Part shown: in pieces, positions 1,670 to 60,029 of the stretch
How positions within the stretch are numbered: position 1 is the first letter of the stretch
Layout: every line of letters begins with the position of its first letter
NCBI RefSeq assembly: GCF_022045235.1
Contig: NW_027266330.1
Coordinates: forward strand, 31,620,001 to 31,684,000
Direction of reading: 5' to 3'
DNA from: Haliotis cracherodii
Lineage: Eukaryota
Length of the DNA: 64,000 nt
The notes under the pieces: model-generated
Told to the model about the DNA's origin: nothing
The model's input: the letters and a program-made list of their open reading frames with translations, nothing else
Database searches by the model: none
Translations under genes and position numbers: made by a program

Positions 1670-1967
1670 TTGATCAATCCCGATTTAATCAATTAACAAT
1701 GATTGATAATCCCTGGAGATAACAGGACTAGATTGGTTGAACTCTTCTCAGACCTCTCCCTTTATACGGAAACTTGTTTTGACAAGAAGTTGATTGGTTT
1801 CTCAAGTGGACAGTGAGATTCCTTTCGGATCAAAGCCGAATGAAGTTGTAGTGTAGCTTTGATCTCGCCACTGGCTTCGAAAATGCTCTCTTTGATCTAT
1901 AAATCTCTACTACTATGTTTATACTAAGGGTCAGTATAAATGTTTTGCACGGACTGGAGTCCTTCAC
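1670..1967 (+). promoter_or_regulatory. Array-gene promoter now fused to LINE A1: ATTGG 1732 and 1793, CTTTGATC-type sites 1828/1857/1890, TATAAA 1935, Inr TTCAC with A+1 at ~1966
   Basis: Same sequence as the promoters of intact units. The left TSD keeps the Inr. Confidence 0.7.
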
Positions 1968-2259
1968 ATCACATGCCTCCCCCATGGAAACTCAACCAGC
2001 TAAACCTAATCCAACCCATGACGAAGATTTCTCCACTACTGAGGAAACAATAGACACTACTCCAACTAAAACAAACCAAACTTCCCAACCAGCCAACACC
2101 CCAAACCTAAATAACCTCACCTTACTCCTAGCATATATGCATAGTCAAAACTCACCAAAAGCTAGTATGGAATCCTTCCACAAAGTAGCTTTCAATCTAA
2201 AATTAACCGATCTTCCCTTCTTCCTCTTTAACCTCCATCTAAAAGAACTCACCGAATAA
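1968..2259 (+). pseudogene. Truncated ORF1 C-terminal remnant of LINE A1
   Basis: Matches the 3' end of ORF1 of copy A2 (SHASPMETQ...LKELTE*). Confidence 0.9.
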
Positions 2260-2278
2260 AATAAAAACTAAAAACTAA

Positions 2279-5200
2279 ATCACCAATCACCCGAACCCAA
2301 TATTCGAAGGACTAAATATTTTTCAGTGGAACGCCAACGGACTCACCTCCCACGGCCATGAACTAAAAACTAAATTTAAACTAAATAAAGGCCCTCACAT
2401 TGCTTGTATACAGGAAACCAAATTCTCAAAAAAATCGAAATTCACACTACCTAACTACAACTCAGTTAGAACTGACAGAGCTAAACCGAAAACAAGAAGA
2501 GCCGCAGGAGGACTAATCATATTTATCAGGGAAGATATAAATTACGAAGAAATAAAAATAGACACGCCAAACCTAGAAGCCAACGGCATTAAAATCACAT
2601 TAAATAACCGAAACATAAACATCATAAATATTTACCACTGGGCGGAACAAAAAGTCCAACCTGAGGATCTAAACAAACTACTCAAAATAAGCGATAAATC
2701 TACTATATTCCTAGGAGACTTTAACGCTCACCATCCTACATGGAGCATAGATGATAAAATAGATAATCATGGCAAATTAATCTCCGAATGGATAGAAACA
2801 AACGACCTAGTACTCCTTAATAGCAACCAACCCACGAGGTACGATAAGATAAACCAAAAAATGTCGGCTATCGACCTAACCATATGCACCGCAGATCTAG
2901 CCCAAAGCACTCAATGGGAAGTGCACGACGTCCCGCTAGGTAGCGACCACTTCCCCATAAACATAACCATAGGAAATACAAACGTACCAATCCAAACAGA
3001 AAACCAAGAACCAAAATTCCATTACAACAAAGCTAACTGGGACCAATTCCAAGATATCTGCAACGAAGCTAACTTAAACGAAATAGAAAATAATGATCCA
3101 GAAACCTATTGTAAAAACCTAACAGACTATATAATAAACGCAGCCAAAACCTCCATCCCCTTCAAAGTATCTAAGACAGGCAAACCGACGGTACCATGGT
3201 GGAATGAGGAAATAGAACAGACTAGACGAAAACGTAAATCAGCCTTCAATAAAGCGAAACGCGACTACAAATATTTAAACATAGCCCACGAACTAAACCA
3301 CCAGGTTCAAAAACTAGTCCAAATAGCCAAAAGTAGAGACTGGAAAAAATTCTGCGAAGGTATAAATAACCGTACAGATGCCAGAACGGTCTGGCGCAAA
3401 ATCCACGCCATTAGAGGCTTAAAACGACAAAAAAAAAACCCTAACATTAACAACTCAACCAACCCCGCCCAAAAAGCAAATAATCTCGCCAACCACTTTT
3501 CGGCCGTTAGCAGTAACAGCAACTTCAGCCAAAAATTCCAAGATAAACTTAAAACAGAAAACAAACCCACAAAAGAACCAAACAATAACAATCTAGAAAT
3601 AAATCAACCCTACACAATGGAGGAGCTCCTCTACGTAATCCAAAACAGGAAAAAGGGCACAGCCCCAGGATTAGACCTAACCTCTTACCAAATAATTAAA
3701 AAACTCCCCCTAAAACTGCTCCAGGCAGTACTCAAACTATACAATCTCATCTACCTAAACGGACAGGTTCCTACACCCTGGAAACAGGCCCTAGTCATAC
3801 CAATCCCTAAACCTAATAAACCAGCTAATCAAGCTAACTCATATAGACCAATATCCCTAACTTCAAACTTATGTAAAGTAATGGAATCAATGGTTAAAAA
3901 TAGATTACAACATTACTTAACCCAAAATAACACCATAAACCCAGATCAAAGCGGTTTCACTCCTGGCCGCTCAACCCTAGATAACCTCGCCCGACTAGAA
4001 CAAGATATTAAGACAGGACAACTAAATAAACAATATACCACAGGCATCTTCTTAGACTTCTCTAAAGCTTTCGACATGGTATGGCACGATGGGCTAATAC
4101 AAAAACTTAAAAAAATAGGACTCAAAGGTCAGATAATAAACTACATCCAGGACTACCTAAACAATCGTAAAATAACCGTGTGTATAGACCAAACTCTATC
4201 GGACCAATGTCCCCTAGAAAATGGCACTCCACAGGGCAGTATCCTCAGCCCCACCCTCTTCAATATAATGATAAACGATCTATTCGAGGGTCTATCCCCT
4301 AAAGTAAACACATCAAAATTCGCGGATGATGGAGCCATCTGGATCCGCACTAAAAGCATGAAAATGGCCACAAATCTACTCCAAAAATCTCTTAATAAAA
4401 TACAACAATGGGCTGACAAATGGGGCTTCTCCCTTAACTCAGAAAAAACAACAGGAATAGTATTCAAACATAAAAACATGAAACCCGCCTCCCCAATCCT
4501 CCAGCTAAACAACCAAACAATCAAATTTCAAAAACAAACCAAATTCTTAGGACTTATTTTCGATGAACATCTCACCTGGGATGCTCACATCCAAAACCTA
4601 ACAACTAAATGCAGTAAAGACCTAAACACCCTAAGATGCCTAACTGGCTCTAACTGGGGAGCCTCCAAAGATACTCTCCTCTCTCTCTACATATCCCTAA
4701 TTAGATCAAAACTAGACTACGGCTGCGCCATATACAACACCCTAAACAACTCTCTATCCAAAAAACTTGACTCAATACAATATCAGGCTCTCAAACTCAT
4801 TACACGCACCCAACATGGCACCTCCTACACCTCACTTCAGGCCTTAACAGGAGAAATGCCACTAAGTCTACGCAGGGAACAGCTAAGCTTAAATTTCTGG
4901 GCCGCGTCCCAATCAAACCCTCTCATCCAAAACTTAATAAACCAAAACATCAGCCCTAAAAACCAAGCTCTAGCTCGTAAACACCCCTTACTTACCCCAA
5001 TATCCCAAAGAATAACAAACTACCTAAATGAACACCAAATTAAAAATCTTAAACAAAACTGCAAACAATCAAATATCTTCACCCCTAAACTTAAAATACC
5101 CAAAATAGACACAACACTAGCTAGCCAAATAAATAAACAAACCGACCCAAACATAGCTAAAACTACCACACTAGCATACATACACAAAAATTGGCCAAAT

Positions 5201-6061
5201 TGGTGTCACATTTACACGGACGGATCCTCAGATCCGACCTCCAAACACACGGGTTTCGGAGTCCATACCACACAACCAACTAAAACCACACAATCCTTCC
5301 GACTCCCAAATAACCAATCAATATTCACGGCCGAACTAATGGGCATGGCCTCAGCCCTCCACAATCAAGAATCCAAAAACAACCAAAAAATCCTAATACT
5401 TACTGACTCCCTAAGTGGACTACAAGCCCTCCAAAACAAAAATACTAAAAACCGACCTAAATTAATAAATCAAATACTTAAAAGCTCCAACGACCTAACA
5501 AAAGCAGGCAAACAAATAACCTTCTTGTGGATACCCGCCCACGTAGGAATATACGGTAATGAAAACGCCGATAAAGCAGCTAAACTATCCCTTAAAATCC
5601 CAGAAATAAGCTTAAACTTACCCATCTCAAAAACAGAAATTAAAAGTGTAAACAAACAAAAAATCACAAAAAAATGGCATAACCTATATCTAAACTCAAA
5701 TAGCAAAATCAAAAGAGTGCTCAGCAAACCACTAACCAAACCAAAAATTCTCCATCCATCAAAAAAAATCGACAGAGTAATCACTAAACTCCAAACAGGA
5801 CACACCAACCTAAATAACCACCTAAAAAATTTTAAAAAACACACTACAGGTAACTGCCCACACTGCAAACAACCAGAAACCCCAGAACACGCACTCATCC
5901 ACTGCACACACTACCTAACACATCGAACCGCATTACAAACCACCCTCAATCTAAACAAGGCTCTCACTCTAGAAGCAATACTAAACCCACAAAATAAACT
6001 AGAAAACTTCAAGGCCTTAGGCGTATTCTTAATAAAAACGGAACTAATAAAACGCATCTAA
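2279..6061 (+). CDS. LINE ORF2 polyprotein: AP-endonuclease, reverse transcriptase, RNase H, C-terminal CX2CX7HX4C. Frame open from 2279; no ATG until 2861
   Basis: Manual translation upstream of 2861 gives FEGLNIFQWNANGL...CIQETK...LGDFNAHH in frame. Then SDH, YRPISLTS, LDFSKAFD, PQGSILSP, FADD, YTDGS, TDSLS, WIPAHVGIYGNENAD, CPHC...H...C. Confidence 0.93.
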   Translation: MTNHPNPIFEGLNIFQWNANGLTSHGHELKTKFKLNKGPHIACIQETKFSKKSKFTLPNYNSVRTDRAKPKTRRAAGGLIIFIREDINYEEIKIDTPNLEANGIKITLNNRNINIINIYHWAEQKVQPEDLNKLLKISDKSTIFLGDFNAHHPTWSIDDKIDNHGKLISEWIETNDLVLLNSNQPTRYDKINQKMSAIDLTICTADLAQSTQWEVHDVPLGSDHFPINITIGNTNVPIQTENQEPKFHYNKANWDQFQDICNEANLNEIENNDPETYCKNLTDYIINAAKTSIPFKVSKTGKPTVPWWNEEIEQTRRKRKSAFNKAKRDYKYLNIAHELNHQVQKLVQIAKSRDWKKFCEGINNRTDARTVWRKIHAIRGLKRQKKNPNINNSTNPAQKANNLANHFSAVSSNSNFSQKFQDKLKTENKPTKEPNNNNLEINQPYTMEELLYVIQNRKKGTAPGLDLTSYQIIKKLPLKLLQAVLKLYNLIYLNGQVPTPWKQALVIPIPKPNKPANQANSYRPISLTSNLCKVMESMVKNRLQHYLTQNNTINPDQSGFTPGRSTLDNLARLEQDIKTGQLNKQYTTGIFLDFSKAFDMVWHDGLIQKLKKIGLKGQIINYIQDYLNNRKITVCIDQTLSDQCPLENGTPQGSILSPTLFNIMINDLFEGLSPKVNTSKFADDGAIWIRTKSMKMATNLLQKSLNKIQQWADKWGFSLNSEKTTGIVFKHKNMKPASPILQLNNQTIKFQKQTKFLGLIFDEHLTWDAHIQNLTTKCSKDLNTLRCLTGSNWGASKDTLLSLYISLIRSKLDYGCAIYNTLNNSLSKKLDSIQYQALKLITRTQHGTSYTSLQALTGEMPLSLRREQLSLNFWAASQSNPLIQNLINQNISPKNQALARKHPLLTPISQRITNYLNEHQIKNLKQNCKQSNIFTPKLKIPKIDTTLASQINKQTDPNIAKTTTLAYIHKNWPNWCHIYTDGSSDPTSKHTGFGVHTTQPTKTTQSFRLPNNQSIFTAELMGMASALHNQESKNNQKILILTDSLSGLQALQNKNTKNRPKLINQILKSSNDLTKAGKQITFLWIPAHVGIYGNENADKAAKLSLKIPEISLNLPISKTEIKSVNKQKITKKWHNLYLNSNSKIKRVLSKPLTKPKILHPSKKIDRVITKLQTGHTNLNNHLKNFKKHTTGNCPHCKQPETPEHALIHCTHYLTHRTALQTTLNLNKALTLEAILNPQNKLENFKALGVFLIKTELIKRI

Positions 6062-6468
6062 AACCATAATAACCTACCAAATCAAAATCACATAAACAAA
6101 CAATCATCCACCATACCCAGCTCCCTTAGTTCTCCTCCCCAACCCCATCAGCATCTATTCCAAATCTCAAAATTCCCAAATTCTATATAAGCAACCCCTA
6201 AAGCCCCCTCTTGGGTTGCACAGACCACCCTCGCCCCTTTCGGAAACACATTAAATGGCCTGGCCGGGCCCGTGTGCGAAATACGCATCAGTCGGAAAGC
6301 GCACGTTAAATCTCCAAAGTAAGTAAGTAAGTAAGTGGAGTCCTTCACTGCATCTCAATCCGTGAGAACGAACACATCTACTTTCCAATTATCTAAATTT
6401 GGCGCTACTGAATTCCTGTAGTATTACATCCGACTGCATTCTAGTGTTGTGTCCGAAGGCCCTAGAAC

Positions 6469-7090
6469 ATGGATCCAGTTCAAGTTGCCATCAAGCTGAG
6501 ACGACTCCTTATTGCCCACGACAATGCAGTGAAAGAGATCCTGACATTAGGTAAATATGAACTGTGCTCTTTTTCAGTCCCCTGCAAACATTGCAATATT
6601 GGTATCACACTGAATTTTAGAATTGAACAAAATAAAATGATATTGTTGTGAACACATTTACCGAGATTTCTAATTACCCGTTTTATTGTTTTCAGATACC
6701 CAAGTCTACCATCTGATGCGGAAGATGACAGCCAACTCCTCCAACAACTGCATAATCCGAGGTGAACAGCTGATCCAGAGATGATGGGTGCTGGAAGGTG
6801 TCAAGGAGATGTTTACCATCTACAGACAACTCAAGTGGCAAGAGGTGCAAGCCTGTGTAAACGCCATCACCAAAGATGCTTCTGGAGAGAGTGATTCGGA
6901 GGCGGACTGGAATGGAGATACCTCTTTCAATGACGATGAAGCTTCCTTCACGGAACTCTTGTCCGACAGCTCATATAGTGAGGACGACGAAGACCAGGGA
7001 GACCTATACAGCAACGACAGCAGCTACGATATGACGACTCTCAGTCGAGCTTTGTCTGTAGACGACAGTGCACTTCATAGAAACGCCTAA
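6469..7090 (+). pseudogene. Array gene copy with nonsense mutation R57* and separated from its promoter by LINE A1 (intron 6551-6695)
   Basis: CGA>TGA at 6782-6784; all other complete copies read CGA. Confidence 0.85.
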
Positions 7091-8589
7091 GAGAAATCAC
7101 AAGTCCCATCCACATCAACTAGTGCTGCATTTACCTTGTTATTCATTTTTTGTAATTGTACACAAATGTTGCCTGACAGTGTGCAAAGGGCATCCTCTTA
7201 TATTGTAAACCACATTTGTTTGTTGATGAATATGCTGAGGAAATAAATAATGAAGTCGATATTATAATCTTGATCAGTTGCTGACACGCTCACGACATCT
7301 TGAAGACATCATTCGTATAGAAAGTTTGTGAGAGAGAGAGAGAAAAGGTTAATTTGAGATGGTATCTCACAATACCAAGCCTTCGATCATTTTACTTGGT
7401 TCTGAGTATGGCAATCATTCGAAGATATCGTCCTTAATCTATTCTTTGAAATAGGAAAAGATACAGACTAATCAATTGAAATGAAACACATTAGGTATTG
7501 ATGGAGAAGAAGAGATTCCAAGGTAATGGTTGCACCATAACATTAAATACAGTTTGGAGCGTAGCAATTCGTTTGCCCGTATCCATGCCGATCCTATAGC
7601 AAAAGGATTTAGACAGACGAACCACAACCCCATATGATATTCATCTGAGAGAGATATATGCCAGGTTGAATTTCATATTATCAGAGCATTTAATTGTTTC
7701 TCTTTCCTTTTGAAATGTACATGCCCAAGTGCTTAAGGAGAGAGTCATACATGTTAAAAAGTGTCAATGCATAAAGCATGCAAAACAAAAGGAAATTGAA
7801 ACATTGACATCAACACAGGCCAAATAACATTTTTGATCCAAGTCAGCACTTGATGAATACTATTCCCCTGAAAGCACTAAAAAGTAAAGATCAGAATATC
7901 CTGACATGAAACAGTGGGCATCTTTCAAAAACAATGCTAACAACGTGCTTATGTATATCTAGCAACATACTCCAATTTCCATCATGTGCTTTAACAGCAT
8001 TCTGTATTCAAAGATATAAATCATGACACCGTACTTTGTAATTCTCCCCAAAACATGACAGTTATACACTGAAGATGATGTCTCTAGATCATTTAACATA
8101 CATAAACTTTATTGTACATGCCTATTTATTTATTTATATAGTAACCTTTTAAGTACCCGACGTCCACCCAAAAGCTTCTAAGATGGTAAATATCCAGATA
8201 CTTAAGCCAAATGAGCTGCTTCAATTATACCATGATGATGGTATTCATCAAAAATAGTATTTGAAATGCTTCAAAACATACGTGCTGTATTTCGATCATG
8301 TAAGACTGGTTGGGAAAATGGTCAGATTAACATAGCATTTACGACCTCCAACAGATGTGTACAATAAGTTCCAGATTTGACTGTACATGTATTCACTTTG
8401 CCTTTGTCTACCTGATTAAGGATTTTTTTTAGGAATGTGGACATGGTTTTCTCGGGTTTTTTAATTGAAACTAAACGTTCAGAGAAGCATCAGACGATTT
8501 CCAAGCTGATAGAAGTTTCTGTGACTTGGTTTCTGTGGAAGCGAAAGTAACCACATCGGATTTTTAAGTAACACAATGTACTGCACCGT

Positions 8590-8890
8590 TTGATCAATCC
8601 CGATTTAATCAATTAACAATGATTGATAATCCCTGGAGATAACAGGACTAGATTGGTTGAACTCTTCTCAGACCTCTCCCTTTATACGGAAACTTGTTTT
8701 GACAAGAAGTTGATTGGTTTCTCAAGTGGACAGTGAGATTCCTTTCGGATCAAAGCCGAATGAAGTTGTAGTGTAGCTTTGATCTCGCCACTGGCTTCGA
8801 AAATGCTCTCTTTGATCTATAAATCTCTACTACTATGTTTATACTAAGGGTCAGTATAAATGTTTTGCACGGACTGGAGTCCTTCACTGC
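8590..8890 (+). promoter_or_regulatory. Representative intact promoter (repeated in every unit): homeodomain/Sox-like cluster ~8592-8632, inverted CCAAT 8652 and 8713, TCF/LEF-type sites 8748-8755, 8777-8784, 8810-8817, TATAAA 8818 and 8855, Inr TTCACT with A at 8886
   Basis: TATA-to-Inr spacing is 31 nt. A 122-nt ATG-free leader leads to a Kozak-like AACATGG. Motif matches were read directly; the TSS is inferred. Confidence 0.7.
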
Positions 8891-9007
8891 ATCTCAATCC
8901 GTGAGAACGAACACATCTACTTTCCAATTATCTAAATTTGGCGCTACTGAATTCCTGTAGTATTACATCCGACTGCATTCTAGTGTTGTGTCCGAAGGCC
9001 CTAGAAC

Positions 9008-9629
9008 ATGGATCCAGTTCAAGTTGCCATCAAGCTGAGACGACTCCTTATTGCCCACGACAATGCAGTGAAAGAGATCCTGACATTAGGTAAATATGAA
9101 CTGTGCTCTTTTTCAGTCCCCTGCAAACATTGCAATATTGGTATCACACTGAATTTTAGAATTGAACAAAATAAAATGATATTGTTGTGAACACATTTAC
9201 CGAGATTTCTAATTACCCGTTTTATTGTTTTCAGATACCCAAGTCTACCATCTGATGCGGAAGATGACAGCCAACTCCTCCAACAACTGCATAATCCGAG
9301 GTGAACAGCTGATCCAGAGACGATGGGTGCTGGAAGGTGTCAAGGAGATGTTTACCATCTACAGACAACTCAAGTGGCAAGAGGTGCAAGCCTGTGTAAA
9401 CGCCATCACCAAAGATGCTTCTGGAGAGAGTGATTCGGAGGCGGACTGGAATGGAGATACCTCTTTCAATGACGATGAAGCTTCCTTCACGGAACTCTTG
9501 TCCGACAGCTCATATAGTGAGGACGACGAAGACCAGGGAGACCTATACAGCAACGACAGCAGCTACGATATGACGACTCTCAGTCGAGCTTTGTCTGTAG
9601 ACGACAGTGCACTTCATAGAAACGCCTAA
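9008..9629 (+). CDS. Uncharacterised 158-aa protein, two exons (9008-9089, 9235-9629), intron 9090-9234
   Basis: Donor AG|GTAAAT, branch CTAAT, pyrimidine tract TTTTATTGTTTTCAG. Splicing joins MDPV...EILTL-D-TQVYHL... in frame (phase 1). Confidence 0.88.
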
Positions 9630-24852: not shown

Positions 24853-26729
24853 GAGAAATCACAAGTCCCATCCACATCAACTAGTGCTGCATTTACCTTG
24901 TTATTCATTTTTTGTTATTGTACACAAATGTTGCCTGACAGTGTGCAAAGGGCATTCTATTATATTGTAAACCACATTTGTTTGTTGATGAATATGCTGA
25001 GGAAATAAATAATGAAGTCGATATTATAATCTTGATCATTTGCTGACACGCTCACGACATCTTGAAGACATCATTCGTATAGAAAGTTTGTGAGAGAGAG
25101 AGAGAGAAAAGGTTAATTTGAGATGGTATCTCACAATACCAAGCCTTCGATCATTTTACTTGGTTCTGAGTATGGCAATCATTCGAAGATATCGTCCTTA
25201 ATCTATTCTTTGAAATAGGAAAAGATACAGACTAATCAATTGAAATGAAACACGTTAGGTATTGATGGAGAAGAGATTCCAATGTAATGGTTGCACCATA
25301 ACATTATATACAGTTTGGAGCGTAGCAATTCGTTTGCCCGTATCCATGCCGATCCTATAGCAAAAGGATTTAGACAGACGAACCACAACCCCATATGATA
25401 TTCATCTGAGAGAGATATATGCCAGGTGGAATTTCATTTTATCAGAGCATTTAATTGTTTCTCTTTCCTTTTGAAATGTACATGCCCAAGTGCTTAAGGA
25501 GAGAGTCATACATGTTAAAAAGTGTCAATGCATACAGCATGCAAAACAAAAGGAAATTGAAACATTGACATCAACACAGGCCAAATAACATTTTTGATCC
25601 AAGTCAGCACTTGATGAATACTATTCCCCTGAAAGCACTAAAAAGTAAAGATCAGAATATCCTGACATGAAACAGTGGGCATCTTTCAAAAACAATGCTA
25701 ACAACGTGCTTATGTATATCTAGCAACATACTCCAATTTCCATCATGTGCTTTAACAGCATTCTGTATTCAAAGATATAAATCATGACACCGTGCTTTGT
25801 AATTCTCCCCAAAACATGACAGTTATACACTGAAGATGATGTCTCTAGATCATTTAACATACATAAACTTTATTGTACATGCCTATTTATTTATTTATAT
25901 AGTAACCTTTTAAGTACCCGACGTCCACCCAAAAGCTTCTAAGATGGTAAATATCCAGATACTTAAGCCAAATGAGCTGCTTCAATTATACCATGATGAT
26001 GGTATTCATCAAAAATAGTATTTGAAATGCTTCAAAACATACGTGCTGTATTTCGATCATGTAAGACGGGTTGGGAAAATGGTCAGATTAACATAGCATT
26101 TACGACCTCAAACAGATGTGTACAATAAGTTCCAGATTTGACTGTACATGTCTTCACTTTGCCTTTGCCTACCTGATTAAGGATTTTTTAGGATTGTGGA
26201 CATGTTTTTCTCGGGGTTTTTAATTGAAACTAAACGTTCAGAGAAGCATCAGACGATTTCCAAGCTGATAGAAGTTTCTGTGACTTGGTTTCTGTGGAAG
26301 CGAAAGTAACCACATCGGATTTTTAAGTAACACAATGTACTGCACCGTTTGATCAATCCCGATTTAATCAATTAACAATGATTGATAATCCCTGGAGATA
26401 ACAGGACTAGATTGGTTGAACTCTTCTCAGACCTCTCCCTTTATACGGAAACTTGTTTTGACAAGAAGTTGTTTGGTTTCTCAAGTGGACAGTGAGATTC
26501 CTTTCGGATCAAAGCCTAATGAAGTTGTAGTGTAGCTTTGATCTCGCCACTGGCTTCGAAAATGCTCTCTTTGATCTATAAATCTCTACTACTATGTTTA
26601 TACTAAGGGTCAGTATAAATGTTTTGCACGGACTGGAGTCCACCAAGTAAAAACAACAAACCAACTCACCTCCCCAAAACCACCACCACTCACCACAACA
26701 CACGCTCTCCAACACAACACCCAAACAAT

Positions 26730-28355
26730 ATGACTGACACCCGCAACGCCACACTCGCAGACATTCCAGCTCCTTACTCACCCACGCCTGCGGAAGCGCA
26801 CAACACTTCTGGGAGGTCACTCGAAAACATCGTCCCGACCGAGTATGGCGAAAACACGACATACACCACCCCAACCAAACCAGCTAACTCGCCACCACAA
26901 AACACCAAAAAACGCAAACTCGACACATCCACTCCACCTCCATCGCCAACACCCTCCCCGGCCGCCTTCCTCACCACCTTCGCCCTCTACTTCTTCTCAG
27001 CAGGCTCAGGCACCACTCTCTCACTAGAACTTTCGGCAGACAAAATAGGACTTTGGTTCAAAAGACAAAAAATAAATTACAACAATATTAAAAAAGCCAA
27101 CAAAGGATACCAGATAATCTTTCCTAACCGAGAATCTTACAACGCAGCAAATAAAATAACTCAAATATTCCACGTCACGGTAATCAAACAAACACCTAAT
27201 TGGCAACAATATACACGAGGCGTAATAAGGGTTAACCCAAGGGAAACAACTGAGGACTTACAATTATACTCTCTAGAAGCTAACATAAACCAAGACCAAA
27301 ACCCTCAACCCCTAATCACCAGCACGCGCAGAATAACCTCAACTAGAAACGGAAAAACGGTCCCAACCTCCATTGTCATAATCAACTTTAAAAAAAACGC
27401 TAAATTCCCTGAAGCCCCCAAACACATATCCTTCGGAGCCCACACAAACTTAGAAGTCAAACCCTATATAAAGCAGGTTAAGCAATGTTCAAAGTGCCTC
27501 AAATACAACCACACTGCTTCCCAATGCACCTACCCTAAAACTAAATGTAAAAAATGCGCACAAACAGACTGCCCAGGCACATGCACACCCTGGTGCATCC
27601 ACTGCAAATCCACCCAACACACTTCACTTTCAAACCAATGCCCACACAGACACACACTCACCCAGCAGGCCAACAAACACATAAACATAGAAACGGCTAA
27701 AATCCAAACACGAAAATTTGCTACACCTGCATCTAAACCACTCCTCCCTACACCACACCCAAACACCATCCCACAAACAAACACCACACCCATAACCGAC
27801 AGCTCTGTCTGGGACCCCTACCGAGAAACCGCACCCACCTCACACACACAAGCAGCCACTCAACCAACCACGAACCCTCCCAAAACATCAACCCCCGCAT
27901 GCAAAACAAACCTCAAAATGACCACCACAACACGACCCTCATCCAAGCACCCTACAGCCCATATGGCAACAACGCTCTCCCACAAGCAAGCACAACAACA
28001 AAACACAAACACTAAGAAAACATCAGCTACACCCATCCCGCCAACACCTTCACAACCCTCCACATCACATGCCTCCCCCATGGAAACTCAACCAGCTAAA
28101 CCTAATCCAACCCATGACGAAGATTTCTCCACTACTGAGGAAACAATAGACACTACTCCAACTAAAACAAACCAAACTTCCCAACCAGCCAACACCCCAA
28201 ACCTAAATAACCTCACCTTACTCCTAGCATATATGCATAGTCAAAACTCACCAAAAGCTAGTATGGAATCCTTCCACAAAGTAGCTTTCAATCTAAAATT
28301 AACCGATCTTCCCTTCTTCCTCTTTAACCTCCATCTAAAAGAACTCACCGAATAA
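26730..28355 (+). CDS. LINE ORF1 gag-like nucleic-acid-binding protein, 541 aa
   Basis: First ATG inside the element (MTDTRN...). Knuckles CSKCLKYNHTASQC, CKKCAQTDCPGTC, CIHCKSTQHTSLSNQC; KKRK NLS-like patch; P/T-rich linker. Confidence 0.88.
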   Translation: MTDTRNATLADIPAPYSPTPAEAHNTSGRSLENIVPTEYGENTTYTTPTKPANSPPQNTKKRKLDTSTPPPSPTPSPAAFLTTFALYFFSAGSGTTLSLELSADKIGLWFKRQKINYNNIKKANKGYQIIFPNRESYNAANKITQIFHVTVIKQTPNWQQYTRGVIRVNPRETTEDLQLYSLEANINQDQNPQPLITSTRRITSTRNGKTVPTSIVIINFKKNAKFPEAPKHISFGAHTNLEVKPYIKQVKQCSKCLKYNHTASQCTYPKTKCKKCAQTDCPGTCTPWCIHCKSTQHTSLSNQCPHRHTLTQQANKHINIETAKIQTRKFATPASKPLLPTPHPNTIPQTNTTPITDSSVWDPYRETAPTSHTQAATQPTTNPPKTSTPACKTNLKMTTTTRPSSKHPTAHMATTLSHKQAQQQNTNTKKTSATPIPPTPSQPSTSHASPMETQPAKPNPTHDEDFSTTEETIDTTPTKTNQTSQPANTPNLNNLTLLLAYMHSQNSPKASMESFHKVAFNLKLTDLPFFLFNLHLKELTE

Positions 28356-28374
28356 AATAAAAACTAAAAACTAA

Positions 28375-31300
28375 ATCACCAATCACCCGAACCCAATATT
28401 CGAAGGACTAAATATTTTTCAGTGGAACGCCAATGGACTCACCTCCCACGGCCATGAACTAAAAACTAAATTTAAACTAAATAAAGGCCCTCACATTGCT
28501 TGTATACAGGAAACCAAATTCTCAAAAAAATCGAAATTCACACTACCTAACTACAACTCAGTTAGAACTGACAGAGCTAAACCGAAAACAAGAAGAGCCG
28601 CAGGAGGACTAATCATATTTATCAGGGAAGATATAAATTACGAAGAAATAAAAATAGACACGCCAAACCTAGAAGCCAACGGCATTAAAATCACATTAAA
28701 TAACCGAAACATAAACATCATAAATATTTACCACTGGGCGGAACAAAAAGTCCAACCTGAGGATCTAAACAAACTACTCAAAATAAGCGATAAATCTACT
28801 ATATTCCTAGGAGACTTTAACGCTCACCATCCTACATGGAGCATAGATGATAAAATAGATACTCATGGCAAATTAATCTCCGAATGGATAGAAACAAACG
28901 ACCTAGTACTCCTTAATAGCAACCAACCCACGAGGTACGATAAGATAAACCAAAAAATGTCGGCTATCGACCTAACCATATGCACCGCAGATCTAGCCCA
29001 AAGCACTCAATGGGAAGTGCACGACGTCCCGCTAGGTAGCGACCACTTCCCCATAAACATAACCATAGGAAATACAAACGTACCAATCCAAACAGAAAAC
29101 CAAGAACCAAAATTCCATTACAACAAAGCTAACTGGGACCAATTCCAAGATATCTGCAACGAAGCTAACTTAAACGAAATAGAAAATAATGATCCAGAAA
29201 CCTATTGTAAAAACCTAACAGACTATATAATAAACGCAGCCAAAACCTCCATCCCCTTCAAAGTATCTAAGACAGGCAAACCGACGGTACCATGGTGGAA
29301 TGAGGAAATAGAACAGATTAGACGAAAACGTAAATCAGCCTTCAATAAAGCAAAACGCGACTACAAATATTTAAACATAGCCCACGAACTAAACCACCAG
29401 GTTCAAAAACTAGTCCAAATAGCCAAAAGTAGAGACTGGAAAAAATTCTGCGAAGGTATAAATAACCGTACAGATGCCAGAACGGTCTGGCGCAAAATCC
29501 ACGCCATTAGAGGCTTAAAACGACATAAAAAAAACCCTAACATTAACAACTCAACCAACCCCGCCCAAAAAGCAAATAATCTCGCCAACCACTTTTCGGC
29601 CGTTAGCAGTAACAGCAACTTCAGCCAAAAATTCCAAGATAAACTTAAAACAGAAAACAAACCCACAAAAGAACCAAACAATAACAATCTAGAAATAAAT
29701 CAACCCTACACAATGGAGGAGCTCCTCTACGTAATCCAAAACAGGAAAAAGGGCACAGCCCCAGGATTAGACCTAACCTCTTACCAAATAATTAAAAAAC
29801 TCCCCCTAAAACTGCTCCAGGCACTACTCAAACTATACAATCTCATCTACCTAAACGGACAGGTTCCTACACCCTGGAAACAGGCCCTAGTCATACCAAT
29901 CCCTAAACCTAATAAACCAGCTAATCAAGCTAACTCATATAGACCAATATCCCTAACTTCAAACTTATGTAAAGTAATGGAATCAATGGCTAAAAATAGA
30001 TTACAACATTACTTAACCCAAAATAACACCATAAACCCAGATCAAAGCGGTTTCACTCCTGGCCGCTCAACCCTAGATAACCTCGCCCGACTAGAACAAG
30101 ATATTAAGACAGGACAACTAAATAAACAATATACCACAGGCATCTTCTTAGACTTCTCTAAAGCTTTCGACATGGTATGGCACGATGGGCTAATACGAAA
30201 ACTTAAAAAAATAGGACTCAAAGGTCAGATAATAAACTACATCCAGGACTACCTAAACAATCGTAAAATAACCGTGTGTATAGACCAAACTCTATCGGAC
30301 CAATGTCCCCTAGAAAATGGCACTCCACAGGGCAGTATCCTCAGCCCCACCCTCTTCAATATAATGATAAACGATCTATTCGAGGGTCTATCCCCTAAAG
30401 TAAACACATCAAAATTCGCGGATGATGGAGCCATCTGGATCCGCACTAAAAGCATGAAAATGGCCACAAATCTACTCCAAAAATCTCTTAATAAAATACA
30501 ACAATGGGCTGACAAATGGGGCTTCTCCCTTAACTCAGAAAAAACAACAGGAATAGTATTCAAACATAAAAACATGAAACCCGCCTCCCCAATCCTCCAG
30601 CTAAACAACCAAACAATCAAATTTCAAAAACAAACCAAATTCTTAGGACTTATTTTCGATGAACATCTCACCTGGGATGCTCACATCCAAAACCTAACAA
30701 CTAAATGCAGTAAAGACCTAAACACCCTAAGATGCCTAACTGGCTCTAACTGGGGAGCCTCCAAAGATAATCTCCTCTCTCTCTACATATCCCTAATTAG
30801 ATCAAAACTAGACTACGGCTGCGCCATATACAACACCCTAAACAACTCTCTATCCAAAAAACTTGACTCAATACAATATCAGGCTCTCAAACTCATTACA
30901 CGCACCCAACATGGCACCTCCTACACCTCACTTCAGGCCTTAACAGGAGAAATGCCACTAAGTCTACGCAGGGAACAGCTAAGCTTAAATTTCTGGGCCG
31001 CGTCCCAATCAAACCCTCTCATCCAAAACTTAATAAACCAAAACATCAGCCCTAAAAACCAAGCTCTAGCTCGTAAACACCCCTTACTTACCCCAATATC
31101 CCAAAGAATAACAAACTACCTAAATGAACACCAAATTAAAAATCTTAAACAAAACTGCAAACAATCAAATATCTTCACCCCTAAACTTAAAATACCCAAA
31201 ATAGACACAACACTAGCTAGCCAAATAAATAAACAAACCGACCCAAACATAGCTAAAACTACCACACTAGCATACATACACAAAAATTGGCCAAATTGGT

Positions 31301-32157
31301 GTCACATTTACACGGACGGATCCTCAGATCCGACCTCCAAACACACGGGTTTCGGAGTCCATACCACACAACCAACTAAAACCACACAATCCTTCCGACT
31401 CCCAAATAACCAATCAATATTCACGGCCGAACTAATGGGCATGGCCTCAGCCCTCCACAATCAAGAATCCAAAAACAACCAAAAAATCCTAATACTTACT
31501 GACTCCCTAAGTGGACTACAAGCCCTCCAAAACAAAAATACTAAAAACCGACCTAAATTAATAAATCAAATACTTAAAAGCTCCAACGACCTAACAAAAG
31601 CAGGCAAACAAATAACCTTCTTGTGGATACCCGCCCACGTAGGAATATACGGTAATGAAAACGCCGATAAAGCAGCTAAACTATCCCTTAAAATCCCAGA
31701 AATAAGCTTAAACTTACCCATCTCAAAATCAGAAATTAAAAGTGTAAACAAACAAAAAATCACAAAAAAATGGCATAACCTATATCTAAACTCAAATAGC
31801 AAAATCAAAAGAGTGCTCAGCAAACCACTAACCAAACCAAAAATTCTCCATCCATCAAAAAAAATCGACAGAGTAATCACTAAACTCCAAACAGGACACA
31901 CCAACCTAAATAACCACCTAAAAAAATTTAAAAAACACACTACAGGTAACTGCCCACACTGCAAACAACCAGAAACCCCAGAACACGCACTCATCCACTG
32001 CACACACTACCTAACACATCGAACCGCATTACAAACCACCCTCAATCTAAACAAGGCTCTCACTCTAGAAGCAATACTAAACCCACAAAATAATCTAGAA
32101 AACTTCAAGGCCTTAGGCGTATTCTTAATAAAAACGGAACTAATAAAACGCATCTAA
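28375..32157 (+). CDS. LINE ORF2 (APE-RT-RNaseH-CCHC), intact; no ATG until 28957
   Basis: Same as A1 ORF2 at offset 26096. The EN domain starts FEGLNIFQWN at 28399. Confidence 0.93.
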   Translation: MTNHPNPIFEGLNIFQWNANGLTSHGHELKTKFKLNKGPHIACIQETKFSKKSKFTLPNYNSVRTDRAKPKTRRAAGGLIIFIREDINYEEIKIDTPNLEANGIKITLNNRNINIINIYHWAEQKVQPEDLNKLLKISDKSTIFLGDFNAHHPTWSIDDKIDTHGKLISEWIETNDLVLLNSNQPTRYDKINQKMSAIDLTICTADLAQSTQWEVHDVPLGSDHFPINITIGNTNVPIQTENQEPKFHYNKANWDQFQDICNEANLNEIENNDPETYCKNLTDYIINAAKTSIPFKVSKTGKPTVPWWNEEIEQIRRKRKSAFNKAKRDYKYLNIAHELNHQVQKLVQIAKSRDWKKFCEGINNRTDARTVWRKIHAIRGLKRHKKNPNINNSTNPAQKANNLANHFSAVSSNSNFSQKFQDKLKTENKPTKEPNNNNLEINQPYTMEELLYVIQNRKKGTAPGLDLTSYQIIKKLPLKLLQALLKLYNLIYLNGQVPTPWKQALVIPIPKPNKPANQANSYRPISLTSNLCKVMESMAKNRLQHYLTQNNTINPDQSGFTPGRSTLDNLARLEQDIKTGQLNKQYTTGIFLDFSKAFDMVWHDGLIRKLKKIGLKGQIINYIQDYLNNRKITVCIDQTLSDQCPLENGTPQGSILSPTLFNIMINDLFEGLSPKVNTSKFADDGAIWIRTKSMKMATNLLQKSLNKIQQWADKWGFSLNSEKTTGIVFKHKNMKPASPILQLNNQTIKFQKQTKFLGLIFDEHLTWDAHIQNLTTKCSKDLNTLRCLTGSNWGASKDNLLSLYISLIRSKLDYGCAIYNTLNNSLSKKLDSIQYQALKLITRTQHGTSYTSLQALTGEMPLSLRREQLSLNFWAASQSNPLIQNLINQNISPKNQALARKHPLLTPISQRITNYLNEHQIKNLKQNCKQSNIFTPKLKIPKIDTTLASQINKQTDPNIAKTTTLAYIHKNWPNWCHIYTDGSSDPTSKHTGFGVHTTQPTKTTQSFRLPNNQSIFTAELMGMASALHNQESKNNQKILILTDSLSGLQALQNKNTKNRPKLINQILKSSNDLTKAGKQITFLWIPAHVGIYGNENADKAAKLSLKIPEISLNLPISKSEIKSVNKQKITKKWHNLYLNSNSKIKRVLSKPLTKPKILHPSKKIDRVITKLQTGHTNLNNHLKKFKKHTTGNCPHCKQPETPEHALIHCTHYLTHRTALQTTLNLNKALTLEAILNPQNNLENFKALGVFLIKTELIKRI

Positions 32158-32564
32158 AACCATAATAACCTACCAAATCAAAATCACATAAACAAACAAT
32201 CATCCACCATACCCAGCTCCCTTAGTTCTCCTCCCCAACCCCATCAGCATCTATTCCAAATCTCAAAATTCCCAAATTCTATATAAGCAACCCCTAAAGC
32301 CCCCTCTTGGGTTGCACAGACCACCCTCGCCCCTTTCGGAAACACATTCAATGGCCTGGCCGGGCCCGTGTGCGAAATACGCATCAGTCGGAAAGCGCAC
32401 GTTAAATCTCCAAAGTAAGTAAAAGTAAGTAAGGAGTCCTTCACTGCATCTCAATCCGTGAGAACGAACACATCTACTTTCCAATTATCTAAATTTGGCG
32501 CTACTGAATTCCTGTAGTATTACATCCGACTGCATTCTAGTGTTGTGTCCGAAGGCCCTAGAAA

Positions 32565-53478: not shown

Positions 53479-55322
53479 GAGAAATCACAAGTCCCATCCA
53501 CATCAACTAGTGCTGCATTAACCTTGTTATTCATTTTTTGTTATTGTACACAAATGTTGCCTGACAGTGTGCAAAGGGCATCCTATTATATTGTAAACCA
53601 CATTTGTTTGTTGATGAATATGCTGAGGAAATAAATAATGAAGTCGATATTATAATCTTGATCATTTGCTGACACGCTCACGACATCTTGAAGACATCAT
53701 TCGTATAGAAAGTTTGTGAGAGAGAGAGAGAAAAGGTTAATTTGAGATGGTATCTCACAATACCAAGCCTTCCATCATTTTACTTGGTTCTGAGTATGGC
53801 AATCATTCGCAGATATCGTCCTTAATCTATTCTTTGAAATAGGAAAAGATACAGACTAATCAATTGAAATGAAACACGTTAGGTATTGATGGAGAAGAGA
53901 TTCCAATGTAATGGTTGCACCATAACATTAAATACAGTTTGGAGCGTTGCAATTCGTTTGCCCGTATCCATGCCGATCCTATAGCAAAAGGATTTAGACA
54001 GACGAACCACAACCCCATATGATATTGATCTTAGAGACATATATGTCAGGTTGGATTTCATATTATCAGAGCATTTAATTGTTTCTCTTTCCTTTTGAAA
54101 TGTACATGCCCAAGTGCTTAAGGAGAGAGTCATACATGTTAAAAAGTGTCAATGCATACAGCATGCAAAACAAAAGGAAATTGAAACATTGACATCAACA
54201 CAGGCCAAATAACATTTTTGATCCAAGTCAGCACTTGATGAATACTATTCCCCTGAAAGCACTAAAAAGTAAAGATCAGAATATCCTGACATGAAACAGT
54301 AGGCATCTTTCAAAAACAATGCTAACAACGTGCTTATGTATATCTAGCAACATACTCCAATTTCCATCATGTGCTTTAACAGCATTCTGTATTCAAAGAT
54401 ATAAATCATGACACCGTGCTTTGTAATTCTCCCCAAAACATGACAGTTATACACTGAAGATGATGTCTCTAGATCATTTAACACACATAAACTTTATTGT
54501 ACATGCCTATTTATTTATTTATATAGTAACCTTTTAAGTACCCGACGTCCACCCAAAAGCTTCTAAGATGGTAAATATCCAGATACTTAAGCCAAATGAA
54601 CTGCTTCAATTATACCATGATGATGGTATTCATCAAAAATAGTATTTGAAATGCTTCAAAACATACGTGCTGTATTTCGATCATGTAAGACGGGTTGGGA
54701 AAATGCTCAGATTAACATAGCATTTACGACCTCAAACAGATGTGTACAATAAGTTCCAGATTTGACTGTACATGTCTTCACTTTGCCTTTGCCTACCTGA
54801 TTAAGGATTTTTTAGGATTGTGGACATGGTTTTCTCGGCTTTTTTAATTGAAACTAAACGTTCAGAGAAGCATCAGACGATTTCCAAGCTGATAGAAGTT
54901 TCTGTGACTTGGTTTCTGTGGAAGCGAAAGTAACCACATCGGATTTTTAAGTAACACAATGTACTGCACCGTTTGATCAATCCCGATTTAATCAATTAAC
55001 AATGATTGATAATCCCTGGAGATAACAGGACTAGATTGGTTGAACTCTTGGCTGGCTGACTGATATAAAAGATTTAACGTGCGCTTTCCGACTACAGCGT
55101 ATTTCGCACACGGGCCTGGTCGGACCATTTAGTGTATTCCGAGAAGGGTGAAAGTGGTGTGTGCAATCCAAGAGGGGGCTTTTAGGGGTTGCTTATATTG
55201 ATTTTTTGAAATTTTTAAATTTGGAATAAATGCCGAGGTGGGTGGAGGAGGGAACTAAGGGAGCCGGGTGAGGTGGGTGTTTGTATGTTTATTGGATTTT
55301 GAATTGGTAGATTAGTTAATTT

Positions 55323-58300
55323 TTAGATGCGCTTAATTAGGTCTGTTTTGATTAGGAATACGCCTAGGGCCTTGAAGTTTTCTAGTTTATTTTGAGGGTT
55401 TAGTATTTCATCTAGAGTAGGAACTTTATTTAGATTGAGGGCGGTTTGTAGTGTGGTTCTGTGTGTTTGATAGTGGGTGCAGTGAATGAGTGCGTGTTCT
55501 GTGGTTTCGGGTTGTTTGCAGTGGGGGCAGTTGCCTGTGGTGTGTCTTTTAAGTTGTTTTAGGTGGTTATTTAGGTTGGTGTGTCCTGTTTGGAGTTTTG
55601 TAATTAATCTGTCAATTTTTTTAGAGGGGTGTAGGATTTTAGGTTTGGCTAGTGGTTTTCTGAGCACTTTTTTGATTTGGCTATTTGAGTTTTGATATTG
55701 ATTATGCCATTTTTTGGTTATTTTTTTGTTTGTTTACACTTTTAATTTCTGATTTTGAGATGGGTAGGTTTAGGCTTATTTCTGGTATTTTGAGAGACAA
55801 TTTAGCTGCTTTATCGGCGCTTTCATTGCCGTAAATTCCTACGTGGGCGGGGATCCACAAGAAGGTTATTTGTTTGCCTGCTTTTGTTAGGTCGTTGGAG
55901 CTTTTAAGTATTTGGTTTATTAATTTAGGTCGTTTTTTGGTATTTTTGTTTTGGAGGGCTTGTAGTCCACTAAGGGAGTCAGTGAGAATTAGGATTTTTT
56001 TGTTGTTTTTAGATTGTTGGTTATGCAGGGCTGAGGCCATGCCCATAAGTTCGGCCGTGAATATTGATTGGTTGTTAGGGAGTCGGTAAGATTGTGTGCA
56101 TATAACTGGTTGTGAGGTATGGACTCCGAAGCCTGTGTGGTTGGAGATCGGGTCTGAAGATCCGTCAGTGTATATGTGACACCAATTTGGCCAATTTTCG
56201 TGTATGTATGCAAGTGTGGTGGTTTTAGCTATGTTTGGGTCGGTTTGTTTATTTATTTGGTTAGCTAGCGTTGTGTCTAATTGGGGTATTTTGAGTTTAG
56301 GGGTGAAGATATTTGTTTTTTTGCAGTTTTGTGTAAGATTTTGAGTTTGGTGTTCATTGAGGTAGTTAGTTATTCTTTGGGATATTGGGGTGAGTAAGGG
56401 GTGTTTGCGAGCTAGAGCTTGGTTTCTTGGGCTAATGTTTTGGTTAATTAGGTTTTGGATGAGAGGGTTTGTTTGGGACGCGGCCCAGAAGTTAAGGCTT
56501 AGATGTTCCCTGCGTAGATTTAGTGGCATTTCTCCTGTAAGGGCCTGAAGTGAGGTGTAGGAGGTGCCATGTTGGGTGCGTGTAATTAGTTTGAGAGCCT
56601 GATATTGTATTGAGTCAAGTTTTTTAGAAAGAGAGTTGTTTAGGGTATTGTATATGGCACAGCCGTAGTCTAGTTTTGATCTAATTAGTGTTGTATATAG
56701 TGAGAGGAGAGTATCTTTGGAGGCTCCCCAGTTAGAGCCGGTGAGACATCTTAATGTGTTAAGGTCTTTGCTGCATCTAGTTTTTAGGTTTTGGACGTGA
56801 GCCTCCCAGGTGAGGTGTTGATCGAAAATAAGTCCTAAGAATTTTGTTTGTTTTTGGAATTTGATTGTTTGGTTGTTTAGCTGGAGGATTGGGTAGGCAG
56901 GTTTCATGTTTTTATGTTTGAATACTACTCCTGTTGTTTTATCTGAGTTAAGGGAGAAGCCCCATTTGTCTGCCCATTGTTGTATTTTATTTAGAGATTT
57001 TTGGATTAAGTTTTCTGCCATTTTAATGCTTTTAGTGCGGATCCATAGGGCTCCGTCATCCGCGAATTTTGAAGTGTTTAGTTTAGGGGATAATCCCTCG
57101 AATAGATCATTTATCATTATATTGAAGAGGGTTGGGCTGAGGATGCTGCCCTGGGGAGTGCCATTTTCTAGGGGACACTGGTCCGATAGTGTATGGTCTA
57201 TACCCACGGTAATTTTGCGATTGTTTAGGAAATCTTGGATGAAGTTTATTATTTGACCTTTTAGTCCTATTTTTTTTAGTTTTTGTAATAGCCCGTGGTG
57301 CCATACCATATCGAAAGCTTTAGAGAAGTCGAGGAATATGCCTATGGTGTATTGCTTGTTTAGCTGTCCTGTTTTTATATCCTGTTCTAGTCGGGCAAGG
57401 TTATCGAGAGTTGATCGGCCAGGAGTGAAGCCGCTTTGGTCAGGATTTATGATGTTGTTTTGGTCTAGGTAGTGCTGTAGCCTATTTTTAGTCATAAGTT
57501 CCATTATTTTGCAGAGATTTGAGGTTAGGGAGATGGGCCTATAGGAGTTTGCCTGATCTGCTGGTTTATTTGGTTTAGGTATTGGGATTACTAGAGCTTC
57601 CTTCCATGAGGATGGGACCTGTCCGTTTAGGTAGACTAGGTTGTATAGTTTAAGTAAAGTTTGGAGTAGTTTGGTAGGTAAGTGTTTGATTATTTGGTAA
57701 GAGGTGAGGTCTAGGCCAGGGGCTGTTCCTTTTTTTCTATTGTTTAGTACGTGATTTAGTTCTTCTATGGTGTAAGGTTGATTTATTTCTAGGTTGTCTT
57801 GTCTGTTTTCTTTGGAGAATTTAGTTTCTTTATTTAGTTTATCTTGGAATTTCTTACTGAAGTTACTGTTGCTGCTAACTTTAGAGAAGTGTTTGGCTAG
57901 GTTGTTGGCCTTTTGGGTGGGGTTAGTTGAGTTGTTTATATTGGGGCTTTTTTTGTGCCGTTTGATGCCTCGGATGGCGTGAATTTTGCGCCACACCTTC
58001 CTAGCGTCGGTGTGGTGATTTAGCTCCTCACAGAATTTTTTCCACGTTTTGGTTTTAGCAGTTTTAACTAGGTTTTGCACTTGGTGGTTAAGTTCATGAG
58101 CTGTTTTGAGATGAGAGGGGTCTCGTTTAGCTCTGTTGAAAGCTGATTTGCGTTTTAGTCTAGTTAGCTCTATTTCCTCATTCCACCAAGGAACAGTGGG
58201 TTTTCCTGGGTTGGATGATTTGAAGGGGATTTCGGATTTGGCTGCGTTGATTATGAAGTTAGTTAGGTTTTGACAGAATGTTTCGGGATCTGTTGTTTCT

Positions 58301-59082
58301 AAATCGTTTAGATTAGCTTCGTTGCATAATTCTTGGAATTGGTCCCAGTTGGCGTTTTTGTACTGAAATTTAGGTTCCTGTTTAGGGGTTTGATTTGGTA
58401 TTTTTATATTTCCTAGGGTTATATTTATGGGAAAGTGGTCGCTGCCTAGAGGTACTGGGTGGACGTCCCACATCAGACTTTGTGCTAAGTCTGGCGTACA
58501 TATTGTTAAGTCGATAGCCGACATGGTGTGGTGGGTTTTGTCGTATCTAGTTGGTTGGTTATTGTTTAATAGTATTAGGTCATTTTTTTCGATCCACTCT
58601 GATATTAGTTGTCCATGGTTGTCTAGTTTATCTGCAATGCCCCAGGTAGGATGATGGGCATTGAAGTCTCCTAGGAAGATGGTTGATTTATTTCCTAATT
58701 GGTAAAGGACATCTAGGTCTGTATCTTTAATTGGTTTTAGTGTTGAGTGATAGATGTTAATGATTTTTATTTTTTGGTTATTGATGGTGACTTGGATTCC
58801 ATTAGCTTCTAGATTAGGAGTGTTTACTTTAACTTCCTCGTAGTTAATATCCTCTCTAACGTAGATGATTAGACCTCCTCCAGTTCTGCCTGGCATGGTT
58901 TTGGACCTGTCGGTTCTCACTGCGTTATAATTTGGTAGGTTGAATTTAGTTTTATGTGAGAATTTGGTTTCTTGAATACAAGCTACATGGGGACCTTTAT
59001 CTATTTTGAATTTAGCTTTGAGTTCAGAACCATGGCCGGCGAGGCCATTGGCATTCCATTGAAAAATGTTTAGGCCTTCCAT
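55323..59082 (-). CDS. Subfamily B ORF2 (APE-RT-RNaseH-CCHC) with a +1 frameshift in an A7 run at 55721-55727
   Basis: ORF 59082-55702 starts MEGLNIFQWN and leaves homology at KQK. The C-terminal CPHC...H...C domain continues in ORF 55667-55323. Confidence 0.9.
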
Positions 59083-59129
59083 TGGGAAACTGGGTGGATT
59101 TATGTTTGGTTTAGGCTTGGTTTAGGTAT

Positions 59130-59678
59130 TTACTTTAGTAGGTTATTAAGGTTGCTGCTGAAACGGTCGAAAGATGTGGTGACGAGTTTTAGTTTATGTG
59201 CTACACCAAAGAAGGCTTTGGAGCTGGCTTCTGGATTAGACTGCTTTAACACGTAAGCTAGTAGGAGGACTAAGTTGTTTAGATTTTTGCTTGCTACGTT
59301 TTGGGTGAGTTTTTTTCTATAGCTTTTGGTTTTTGGGGCTGACAAGGTAAGCTCGTTTATTTCCTCTGAGGATGTGTACTCGTCCTCTTCGGTTAAGTTG
59401 TCTTTAGTTTGGTCAATCTGTTCGGTGGTGGGTTGCATGCTGGGTTTGGGTGCGAGAGTCTGAGTGGTTTCTGTAGTTTCCCTGTTGACTGGGTGTTCGG
59501 GGGTTGCCTGTAGGTTTGGGAGTGTTGTTGCCCTTGTGGCTGTGATGGCTTGTGTTGGTGCTGGTTGTGTGGTGGTCGTTGTGCGTTGGGTTTTGCTTGC
59601 GGGTGTAGATGTGGTAATTGTAGGGTGAGAGGCGGGGAGGGTGAGAGTGTGAGTTTGTGGGATGTGTGGGGTGTTTGT
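59130..59678 (-). pseudogene. Truncated ORF1 C-terminal part of subfamily B
   Basis: T/P-rich linker, then NLNNLVLLLAY..., homologous to the A ORF1 end (NLNNLTLLLAY). Confidence 0.85.
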
Positions 59679-60029
59679 TTGAACTCTTCTCAGACCTCTC
59701 CCTTTATACGGAAACTTGTTTTGACAAGAAGTTGATTGGTTTCTCAAGTGGACAGTGAGATTCCTTTCGGATCAAAGCCGAATGAAGTTGTAGTGTAGCT
59801 TTGATCTCGCCACTGGCTTCGAAAATGCTCCCTTTGATCTATAAATCTCTACTACTATGTTTATACTAAGGGTCAGTATAAATGTTTTGCAAGGACTGGA
59901 GTCCTTCACTGCATCTCAATCCGTGAGAACGAACACATCTACTTTCCAATTATCTAAATTTGGCGCTACTGAATTCCTGTAGTATTACATCCGACTGCAT
60001 TCTAGTGTTGTGTCCGAAGGCCCTAGAAC

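Follow-up and report, generated by a model that had tools for sequence, protein, structure and literature searches.

The closest described counterpart of the promoter considered here is that of the Xenopus gene siamois, which likewise carries several TCF cores within about 230 bp of its start without an adjoining RCCG helper; the -233/+5 probe holds four potential TCF elements and no RCCG (PMC2847248). Siamois is also a short gene, expressed early and initiated by nuclear beta-catenin (10.1101/488056). The earliest zygotic genes of the frog are short (<1 kb coding), intron-poor and clustered, with beta-catenin initiating nodal3/5/6 as well as siamois, and the nodal5/6 clusters resemble the abalone array in being multicopy, with a short coding sequence and few introns (10.1101/488056). 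A third point of reference is provided by the elements bound by Drosophila TCF/Pangolin and by E-tail TCFs, which share with the array the HMG core CTTTGWWS, and abalone too has a C-clamp TCF (PMC4154663, PMC4267635). CTTTGWWS is given as the Wnt-response element (WRE) consensus and RCCGCC as the helper site (PMC4267635), with GCCGCCR as the helper in the fly (PMC4154663).

Siamois is a homeobox gene for which TCF binding and activation have been demonstrated; the array, a candidate for such binding, encodes an unnamed helical-hairpin protein without a Pfam match, in 47 copies. Unlike nodal5/6, with which it shares no homology, the array consists of near-identical units that repeat the whole promoter and is marked by LINE hotspots. 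Homology to homeobox or TGF-beta genes was not found (the product fits no Pfam family), so that the comparison concerns only how such promoters may work. In contrast to the bipartite HMG-helper elements, neither GCCGCCR nor RCCGCC occurs in 16 promoters searched, and the GCCG present in the array overlaps the core. Clusters of TCF sites in proximal promoters are a known kind of element; what is new is an unnamed mollusc gene family that bears one.

The window, meaning the whole 64,000-nucleotide stretch of Haliotis cracherodii DNA that was analysed (C67:31.62-31.68 Mb of a 1.18-Gb genome), lies inside an array of 47 gene copies that extends over about 157 kb (C67:31.609-31.766 Mb). The array and one of its genes are laid out as follows.

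1-64000, plus strand: tandem array of units of about 2537 bp, with 19 genes in the window, 18 of them intact
9008-9089, plus strand: coding exon 1, 82 nt, with the ATG at 9008; equal in length in the C78, C23 and L091 homologs described below
9090-9234, plus strand: GT-AG intron, the spliced joint being present in two of four RNA-like runs (X1, X7)
9235-9629, plus strand: coding exon 2, with the stop at 9629; product of 158 aa

The coding sequence amounts to 477 nt, with the one intron. Among named proteins, the best matches are NCBI 'uncharacterized protein' models from Haliotis rufescens (98% identity) and H. asinina (88%); the gene is multicopy also in records of H. asinina, H. rubra and H. 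rufescens, and more distant homologs occur in Patella, Lottia, Pecten and Mytilus. None of the NCBI homologs from Haliotis or these four genera carries an annotated function or regulation. Literature searches, covering mainly open-access main texts, found no paper on the gene family or the locus, and those on mollusc Wnt targets found none for the array locus.

The structure predicted for the product (pLDDT 70) consists of a helical hairpin, an acidic linker and, at the C-terminus, a further helix. Searches against Pfam, PDB sequences, Foldseek, VIA-align and Atlas returned generic hairpins or nothing. The match of its fold to Vps24 (Z 9.2, rmsd 1.9, 88 aligned) is tied with many unrelated hairpins, and the Atlas feature score of 0.86 for Snf7/ESCRT-III obtained with the Lottia homolog P0020 is a lead only. 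The layout of hairpin, acidic linker and terminal helix loosely resembles ESCRT-III/Snf7. Relatives of the product were sought in viral contigs and none was found, and the secreted, pan-animal 'beer belly' protein is set apart from it by description alone. The antepenultimate residue is an arginine in 32 of 37 family proteins and also in the two paralogs that were modelled (9618-9626 in the window); we take it to be a possible C-terminal degron.

The promoter of this gene contains the following elements.

8588-8595, plus strand: weak fourth site, GTTTGATC (7/8 match)
8627-8717: TAATCC (8627) and two reverse CCAAT boxes (8652, 8713), also present in TCF-less paralog promoters
8748-8755, minus strand: TCF/LEF-consensus site 1, GATCAAAG (which is CTTTGATC on the minus strand), matching the WRE CTTTGWWS (PMC4267635)
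8755-8758, plus strand: GCCG, proposed as a helper site; it overlaps site 1
8777-8784, plus strand: TCF/LEF-consensus site 2, CTTTGATC, aligned with the middle site of C78 in a global alignment of twilight quality
8786-8790: CGCCA, flanking site 2
8810-8817, plus strand: TCF/LEF-consensus site 3, CTTTGATC, lost in one edge copy beyond the window
8855-8860, plus strand: TATA box, TATAAA, with a predicted start near 8886

The likely binders of TAATCC and of the CCAAT boxes are presumably a K50 homeodomain protein and NF-Y, respectively. The sequence-only reading of this stretch had reported three perfect TCF/LEF-type sites within 70 bp, and these are present, in place and letter, at 8748, 8777 and 8810; their starts lie 107, 78 and 45 bases upstream of the TATAAA at 8855. 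The offsets of -138, -109 and -76 given for them presuppose the predicted start at 8886, which is consistent with the TATA spacing. The spliced contig of run X1 begins at 8911. RNA-like contigs of X2, X7 and X12 cross the three sites at low depth and may represent an upstream start, read-through or DNA; with such contigs in three runs, the start at 8886 stays a prediction. The X2 and X7 contigs reach hundreds of bases 5' of the TATA box (8300-9089) and end near the AATAAA at 9781. Sites 1 and 2 do extend, as had been described, to a 9-bp inverted repeat (8748-8756 and 8776-8784) with a 19-nt spacer, but the repeat is not kept in the homologs, in which the site orientations differ, and on this comparison of promoters it is a by-product of two opposed sites.

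Much had also been made of the persistence of the trio in every unit and of a high dosage of roughly 60 sites. The trio is indeed found in all 19 window units, including the diverged last ones, and the variant site ascribed to the unit at ~59830 is likewise there, as CCCTTTGATC in the unit at 59770. The window units are, however, 98.8-100% identical to each other (95.7-96.5% for the last two), and because copies are 96-100% identical, 'kept in every unit' is not evidence. The window holds 59 matches, of which 57 are 19 units with three sites each and two lie in a LINE ORF2; the persistence is pseudo-replication, and the supposed dosage is one event copied. A comparison of the window-wide count with shuffles (59 vs. 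3.9) was discarded as a measure of enrichment for the same reason. Over the whole array 45 of 47 gene copies have an intact trio, the exceptions being one edge copy without site 3 and one copy that lacks its promoter at a LINE. In the alignment of the 47 promoter rows 21 of 375 positions vary, one of them among the 24 site bases, and this invariance of the sites inside the array is no better than chance (P=0.6). Contigs of related organisms that run across the array promoter have no change inside the three sites among the rows listed, in a comparison with little power at a few percent divergence.

A fair test against chance takes one 2538-bp unit and dinucleotide shuffles of it. Three copies within 70 bp were obtained in 0 of 5000 such shuffles, which puts the trio beyond chance. 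The trio also survives the after-the-fact choice of motif, because any 8-mer at all occurs three times in 70 bp in only 12 of 2000 shuffles of the unit, in which the TCF-site trio is the sole 8-mer triple of such kind.

Such trios are also rare in the genome at large. The strict pattern with the array's orientations (-++) has 62 matches in 1.18 Gb, against 0 in the control. Of these, 45 are array units, and the other 17 fall at five loci that look repetitive, two of them confirmed tandem repeats and three judged so from the sequence listed. The strict ++- pattern has 12 matches, 11 in one minisatellite and the twelfth at C78, from which the pattern was derived, so that this count speaks to rarity only. 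Relaxed patterns, run without the relaxed -++ class, gave 31 matches vs. 8 in the control in one case and 31 vs. 6 in the other. Same-strand pairs (1473 vs. 1440 in the control) were set aside as uninformative, the rows listed being mostly minisatellites. Twenty stretches near other trios, taken as a positive control, contained no family member by profile, and 0 of 150 ORFs scanned there (of 799 of at least 60 aa) matched Pfam. Another tandem array, at C6:30.79-30.81 Mb (L042-L043), has a period of about 8 kb and a CTTTGAT trio in each unit; its ORFs, where scanned, had no Pfam match.

The genome contains distant paralogs of the array gene at C23, C78, C12 and C45, and the trio recurs in one of them. 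The C78 paralog, on another contig, has 39% protein identity and is spliced in run X1; its promoter carries CTTTGATC, CTTTGATC and CTTTGATG at -285, -232 and -197 from the ATG. This trio spans 96 bp, lies upstream of a TATA-like box and was matched by 1 of 5000 shuffles. A second recurrence is in L091 (VAPK010406427.1), the sole homolog from a metagenome scan, also with 39% identity. The ends of L091 overlap (90% over 87 bp), which suggests one unit of another tandem array, and it would appear to come from another animal, since no such gene is among the matches in the abalone genome. Its promoter has CTTTGAT at -178, -156 and -144, three in 41 bp, upstream of a TATAAA at -102; the 7-mer was fixed before the L091 locus was examined, and 2 of 5000 shuffles matched its trio. 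No 7-mer other than CTTTGAT is present two or more times in each of the array, C78 and L091 promoters, and in all three a TATA box follows downstream of the trio. Conservation in homologous promoters holds for part of the family only.

The promoter of the C23 paralog (41% identity) has 0 CTTTGAT and one CTTTGWWS, and no trio. In the C12 cluster the trio is absent from 12 of 12 promoters, which have 0-1 WRE each, two being displaced by LINEs; the single gene on C12 is likewise without it, with 0-1 WRE, and the promoter of the C45 paralog was not located. Besides the array, the family forms two clusters on C12 (L016-L024; C12:3.43-3.47 Mb and 62.09-62.14 Mb), of about 15 genes at 26% identity, whose promoters, with CCAAT, TAATCC and TATA but no TCF trio, are natural negative controls. 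An intronless member at L013:4902-5501 (C12:63.483 Mb) is possibly a retrocopy of the C12 type. Among related organisms, a contig of organism C keeps both of the C78 sites within its cover; run X5 does not cover the C78 exons, and none of the runs is catalogued as RNA, neither of which bears on expression.

We consider the trio likely to be a selected Wnt-response element, to which TCF would bind and through which beta-catenin would switch many copies on for a pulse of short-lived protein; we put the probability of this at about 0.7. A Wnt-response element is likely because the trio adjoins the TATA box of a spliced, 47-copy gene and recurs in two homologous promoters. In such a scheme TCF would bind the trio through its HMG box, and beta-catenin would activate many array copies at once, several core sites being enough with no helper beside them, as at Xenopus siamois. 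The output would rise with tandem amplification, the conserved antepenultimate arginine would shorten the life of the protein, and the result would be a short burst of protein, probably in early embryos.

The GC-rich flanks reported beside the sites, GCCG at 8755-8758 and CGCCA at 8786-8790, are present as described, but their proposed role as helpers for a C-clamp TCF fails: RCCGCC occurs in 0 of the 16 promoters, and the GCCG that overlaps site 1 is polymorphic, reading GCCT in 5 of the 19 window units and in two of the three related-organism runs that cover it (X2, X12). The shorter RCCG is present in the array and near site 1 of L091 and absent from C78, and is too frequent to weigh (PMC4267635). 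Absence of the extended helper is one of the points in favour of an alternative that we regard as unlikely, though the likeliest of the rivals, in which TCF mainly represses the array (the TCF/Groucho default) and the family-wide factors at CCAAT and TAATCC, motifs found in promoters with and without the trio, activate it. TCFs do repress without signal (PMC3916239, PMC3698143). Against this, helper-less promoters with several sites, such as siamois, are activated (PMC2847248), and the same sites serve both modes, which makes the two inseparable by sequence.

The identity of the binder raises a different alternative, that the sites are functional but read independently of Wnt by another factor, most plausibly an HMG protein of the Sox type. 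The loose Sox heptamer is (A/T)(A/T)CAA(A/T)G, which ATCAAAG fits, and the genome has several HMG boxes of apparent Sox type. Sox proteins prefer AACAAT/AACAAAG. The core is ATCAAAG in nine of nine sites of the three promoters and in none of them the AACAAT or AACAAAG of this preference, and the eighth base is C or G, as in the WRE, in seven of nine. Full CTTTGWWS matches make up the same seven (array 3/3, C78 3/3, L091 1/3); none of the L091 sites is CTTTGATC, but all three have the 7-mer core. TCF is favoured over Sox because of these two counts, 7/9 and 9/9, and a Sox reader seems to us distinctly improbable. The sequence CTTTGATT is the core of a TCF4-bound element of Cdx1 (PMC2847248, Table 2). 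The abalone has a TCF gene at C12:34.70 Mb (L109-L110, L121), found through PF00505, with HMG-box exons and a C-clamp-like exon (judged by peptide motifs); a search with PF08347 gave nothing in the genome or in the controls. Two similar HMG-box first exons of this gene lie about 365 bp apart and are probably alternative. The original TCF/Wnt reading thus draws support, at the level of sequence, from the trio in two homologous promoters and from a host C-clamp TCF gene.

We think it very unlikely that the trio is a neutral accident or relic, a chance arrangement that tandem duplication then copied, the trios of the homologs being due to common ancestry. The near-identity of the units and the non-significant conservation within the array would suit such an origin, as would the absence of the trio from C23 and C12 and a contig of organism E in which 7 bp are deleted across the distal C78 site. 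So would a residual similarity of the array and C78 promoters: their global alignment with the sites masked scores -19 to -30, the null being -45 +/- 11, a twilight similarity by which the two are not fully independent. The trio may be ancestral to the family, in a tree that has 7 of 19 inner branches open and C78 as a long branch. Against a relic, each of the three promoters has its trio at P below 0.001, in genes whose proteins are at about 39% identity, and the orientations (-++, ++- and +++ in the array, C78 and L091) and spacings differ. No local alignment joins the three promoters, 201/300, 38/300 and 81/300 shuffles scoring equally high. For the array and C78 the faint global similarity, in which the middle site is aligned, suggests that one site was retained and the others turned over.

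LINEs are a conspicuous feature of the array, and three lie in the window.

1961-6336, plus strand: 5'-truncated LINE (endonuclease, RT, RNase H), lying between TATA box and predicted start and followed by a gene with a premature stop
26641-32432, plus strand: LINE with ORF1 and ORF2, its 3' junction as in the copy at 1961-6336 and its 5' end different
55049-59675, minus strand: related LINE (83%), inserted in antisense some 80 bp 5' of site 1

In the gene copy right behind the first of these (6469-7090) the reading frame is cut short at codon 57; the remaining 18 copies of the window are intact. The young LINE, with its (AAGT)n tail, has 10 3' ends in the array vs. 0 in 278,704 control bases; about 0.12 would be expected from the 914 first-look candidates, a lower bound. 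With at least 914 such candidates it is dispersed in the genome, and 30 of 30 flanks fetched (of 41 listed) are without a common target, so that in this sample it does not behave as a sequence-specific LINE. Five 3' ends, probably three events, lie in the TCF-less C12 promoters in both orientations; the element is also present upstream of C78, and copies of it adjoin the 5' ends of others (the loci of these kinds are the array, L018, L021, L022, L023, L014, L061 and L085). Some insertions have an inverted copy of the target flank, e.g. L028:7395-8964, L037-L038 and L014:6200-6600.

An arrangement of use chiefly to the LINE, which would target the promoter to borrow Wnt-driven transcription, is the least credible explanation. 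In its favour, most array copies share one 3' end point, about 15 nt past the TATA box, and differ in their 5' ends, one full-length copy starts exactly at unit position 8885, and the copy at 26641 has both ORFs open. Against it, the element is dispersed, shares no target in the sampled flanks, and occurs in antisense, at the 5' ends of other copies of itself and in TCF-less promoters; the trio in C78 or L091 is left unexplained. The earlier idea that a retroelement captures the TCF promoter is weak on the same grounds, though the full-length copy starting at 8885 could be readable from the array promoter. It is possible that the LINE prefers open promoters or transcription start regions. Heritable insertions would then imply open chromatin at the family promoters in the germ line or its precursors, which suggests that the gene family is active there.

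Returning to the trio as a Wnt-response element, the weakest step is the stage of expression, which we place in the early embryo or germ-line precursors with little better than even odds; the original suggestion of an early embryonic or stem-cell locus is plausible. In the snail Crepidula, beta-catenin persists in cells of the 4d lineage, including germ-line precursors (PMC3724503). By analogy, this pattern and the layout of the earliest frog genes would both fit the model proposed for the array. A wider and distinctly tentative version, which we hold to be doubtful, is that beta-catenin/TCF has since ancient times directly driven a mollusc-specific family of short-lived helical-hairpin proteins in the early spiralian embryo. 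Tandem amplification would have taken the Wnt switch along in at least two lineages, and in germ-line precursors the family promoters would be open enough for a young LINE to accumulate there and be transcribable from the Wnt-driven start.

The concentration of LINEs at family promoters is a separate lead. By its cluster of TCF sites, an unnamed family of mollusc genes becomes a candidate for direct control by Wnt. If this is true, molluscan embryology would gain an endogenous read-out in 47 copies and a native beta-catenin reporter of compact size, an orphan family would acquire its first context, and the frog pattern of tandem-amplified beta-catenin targets would extend to a spiralian.
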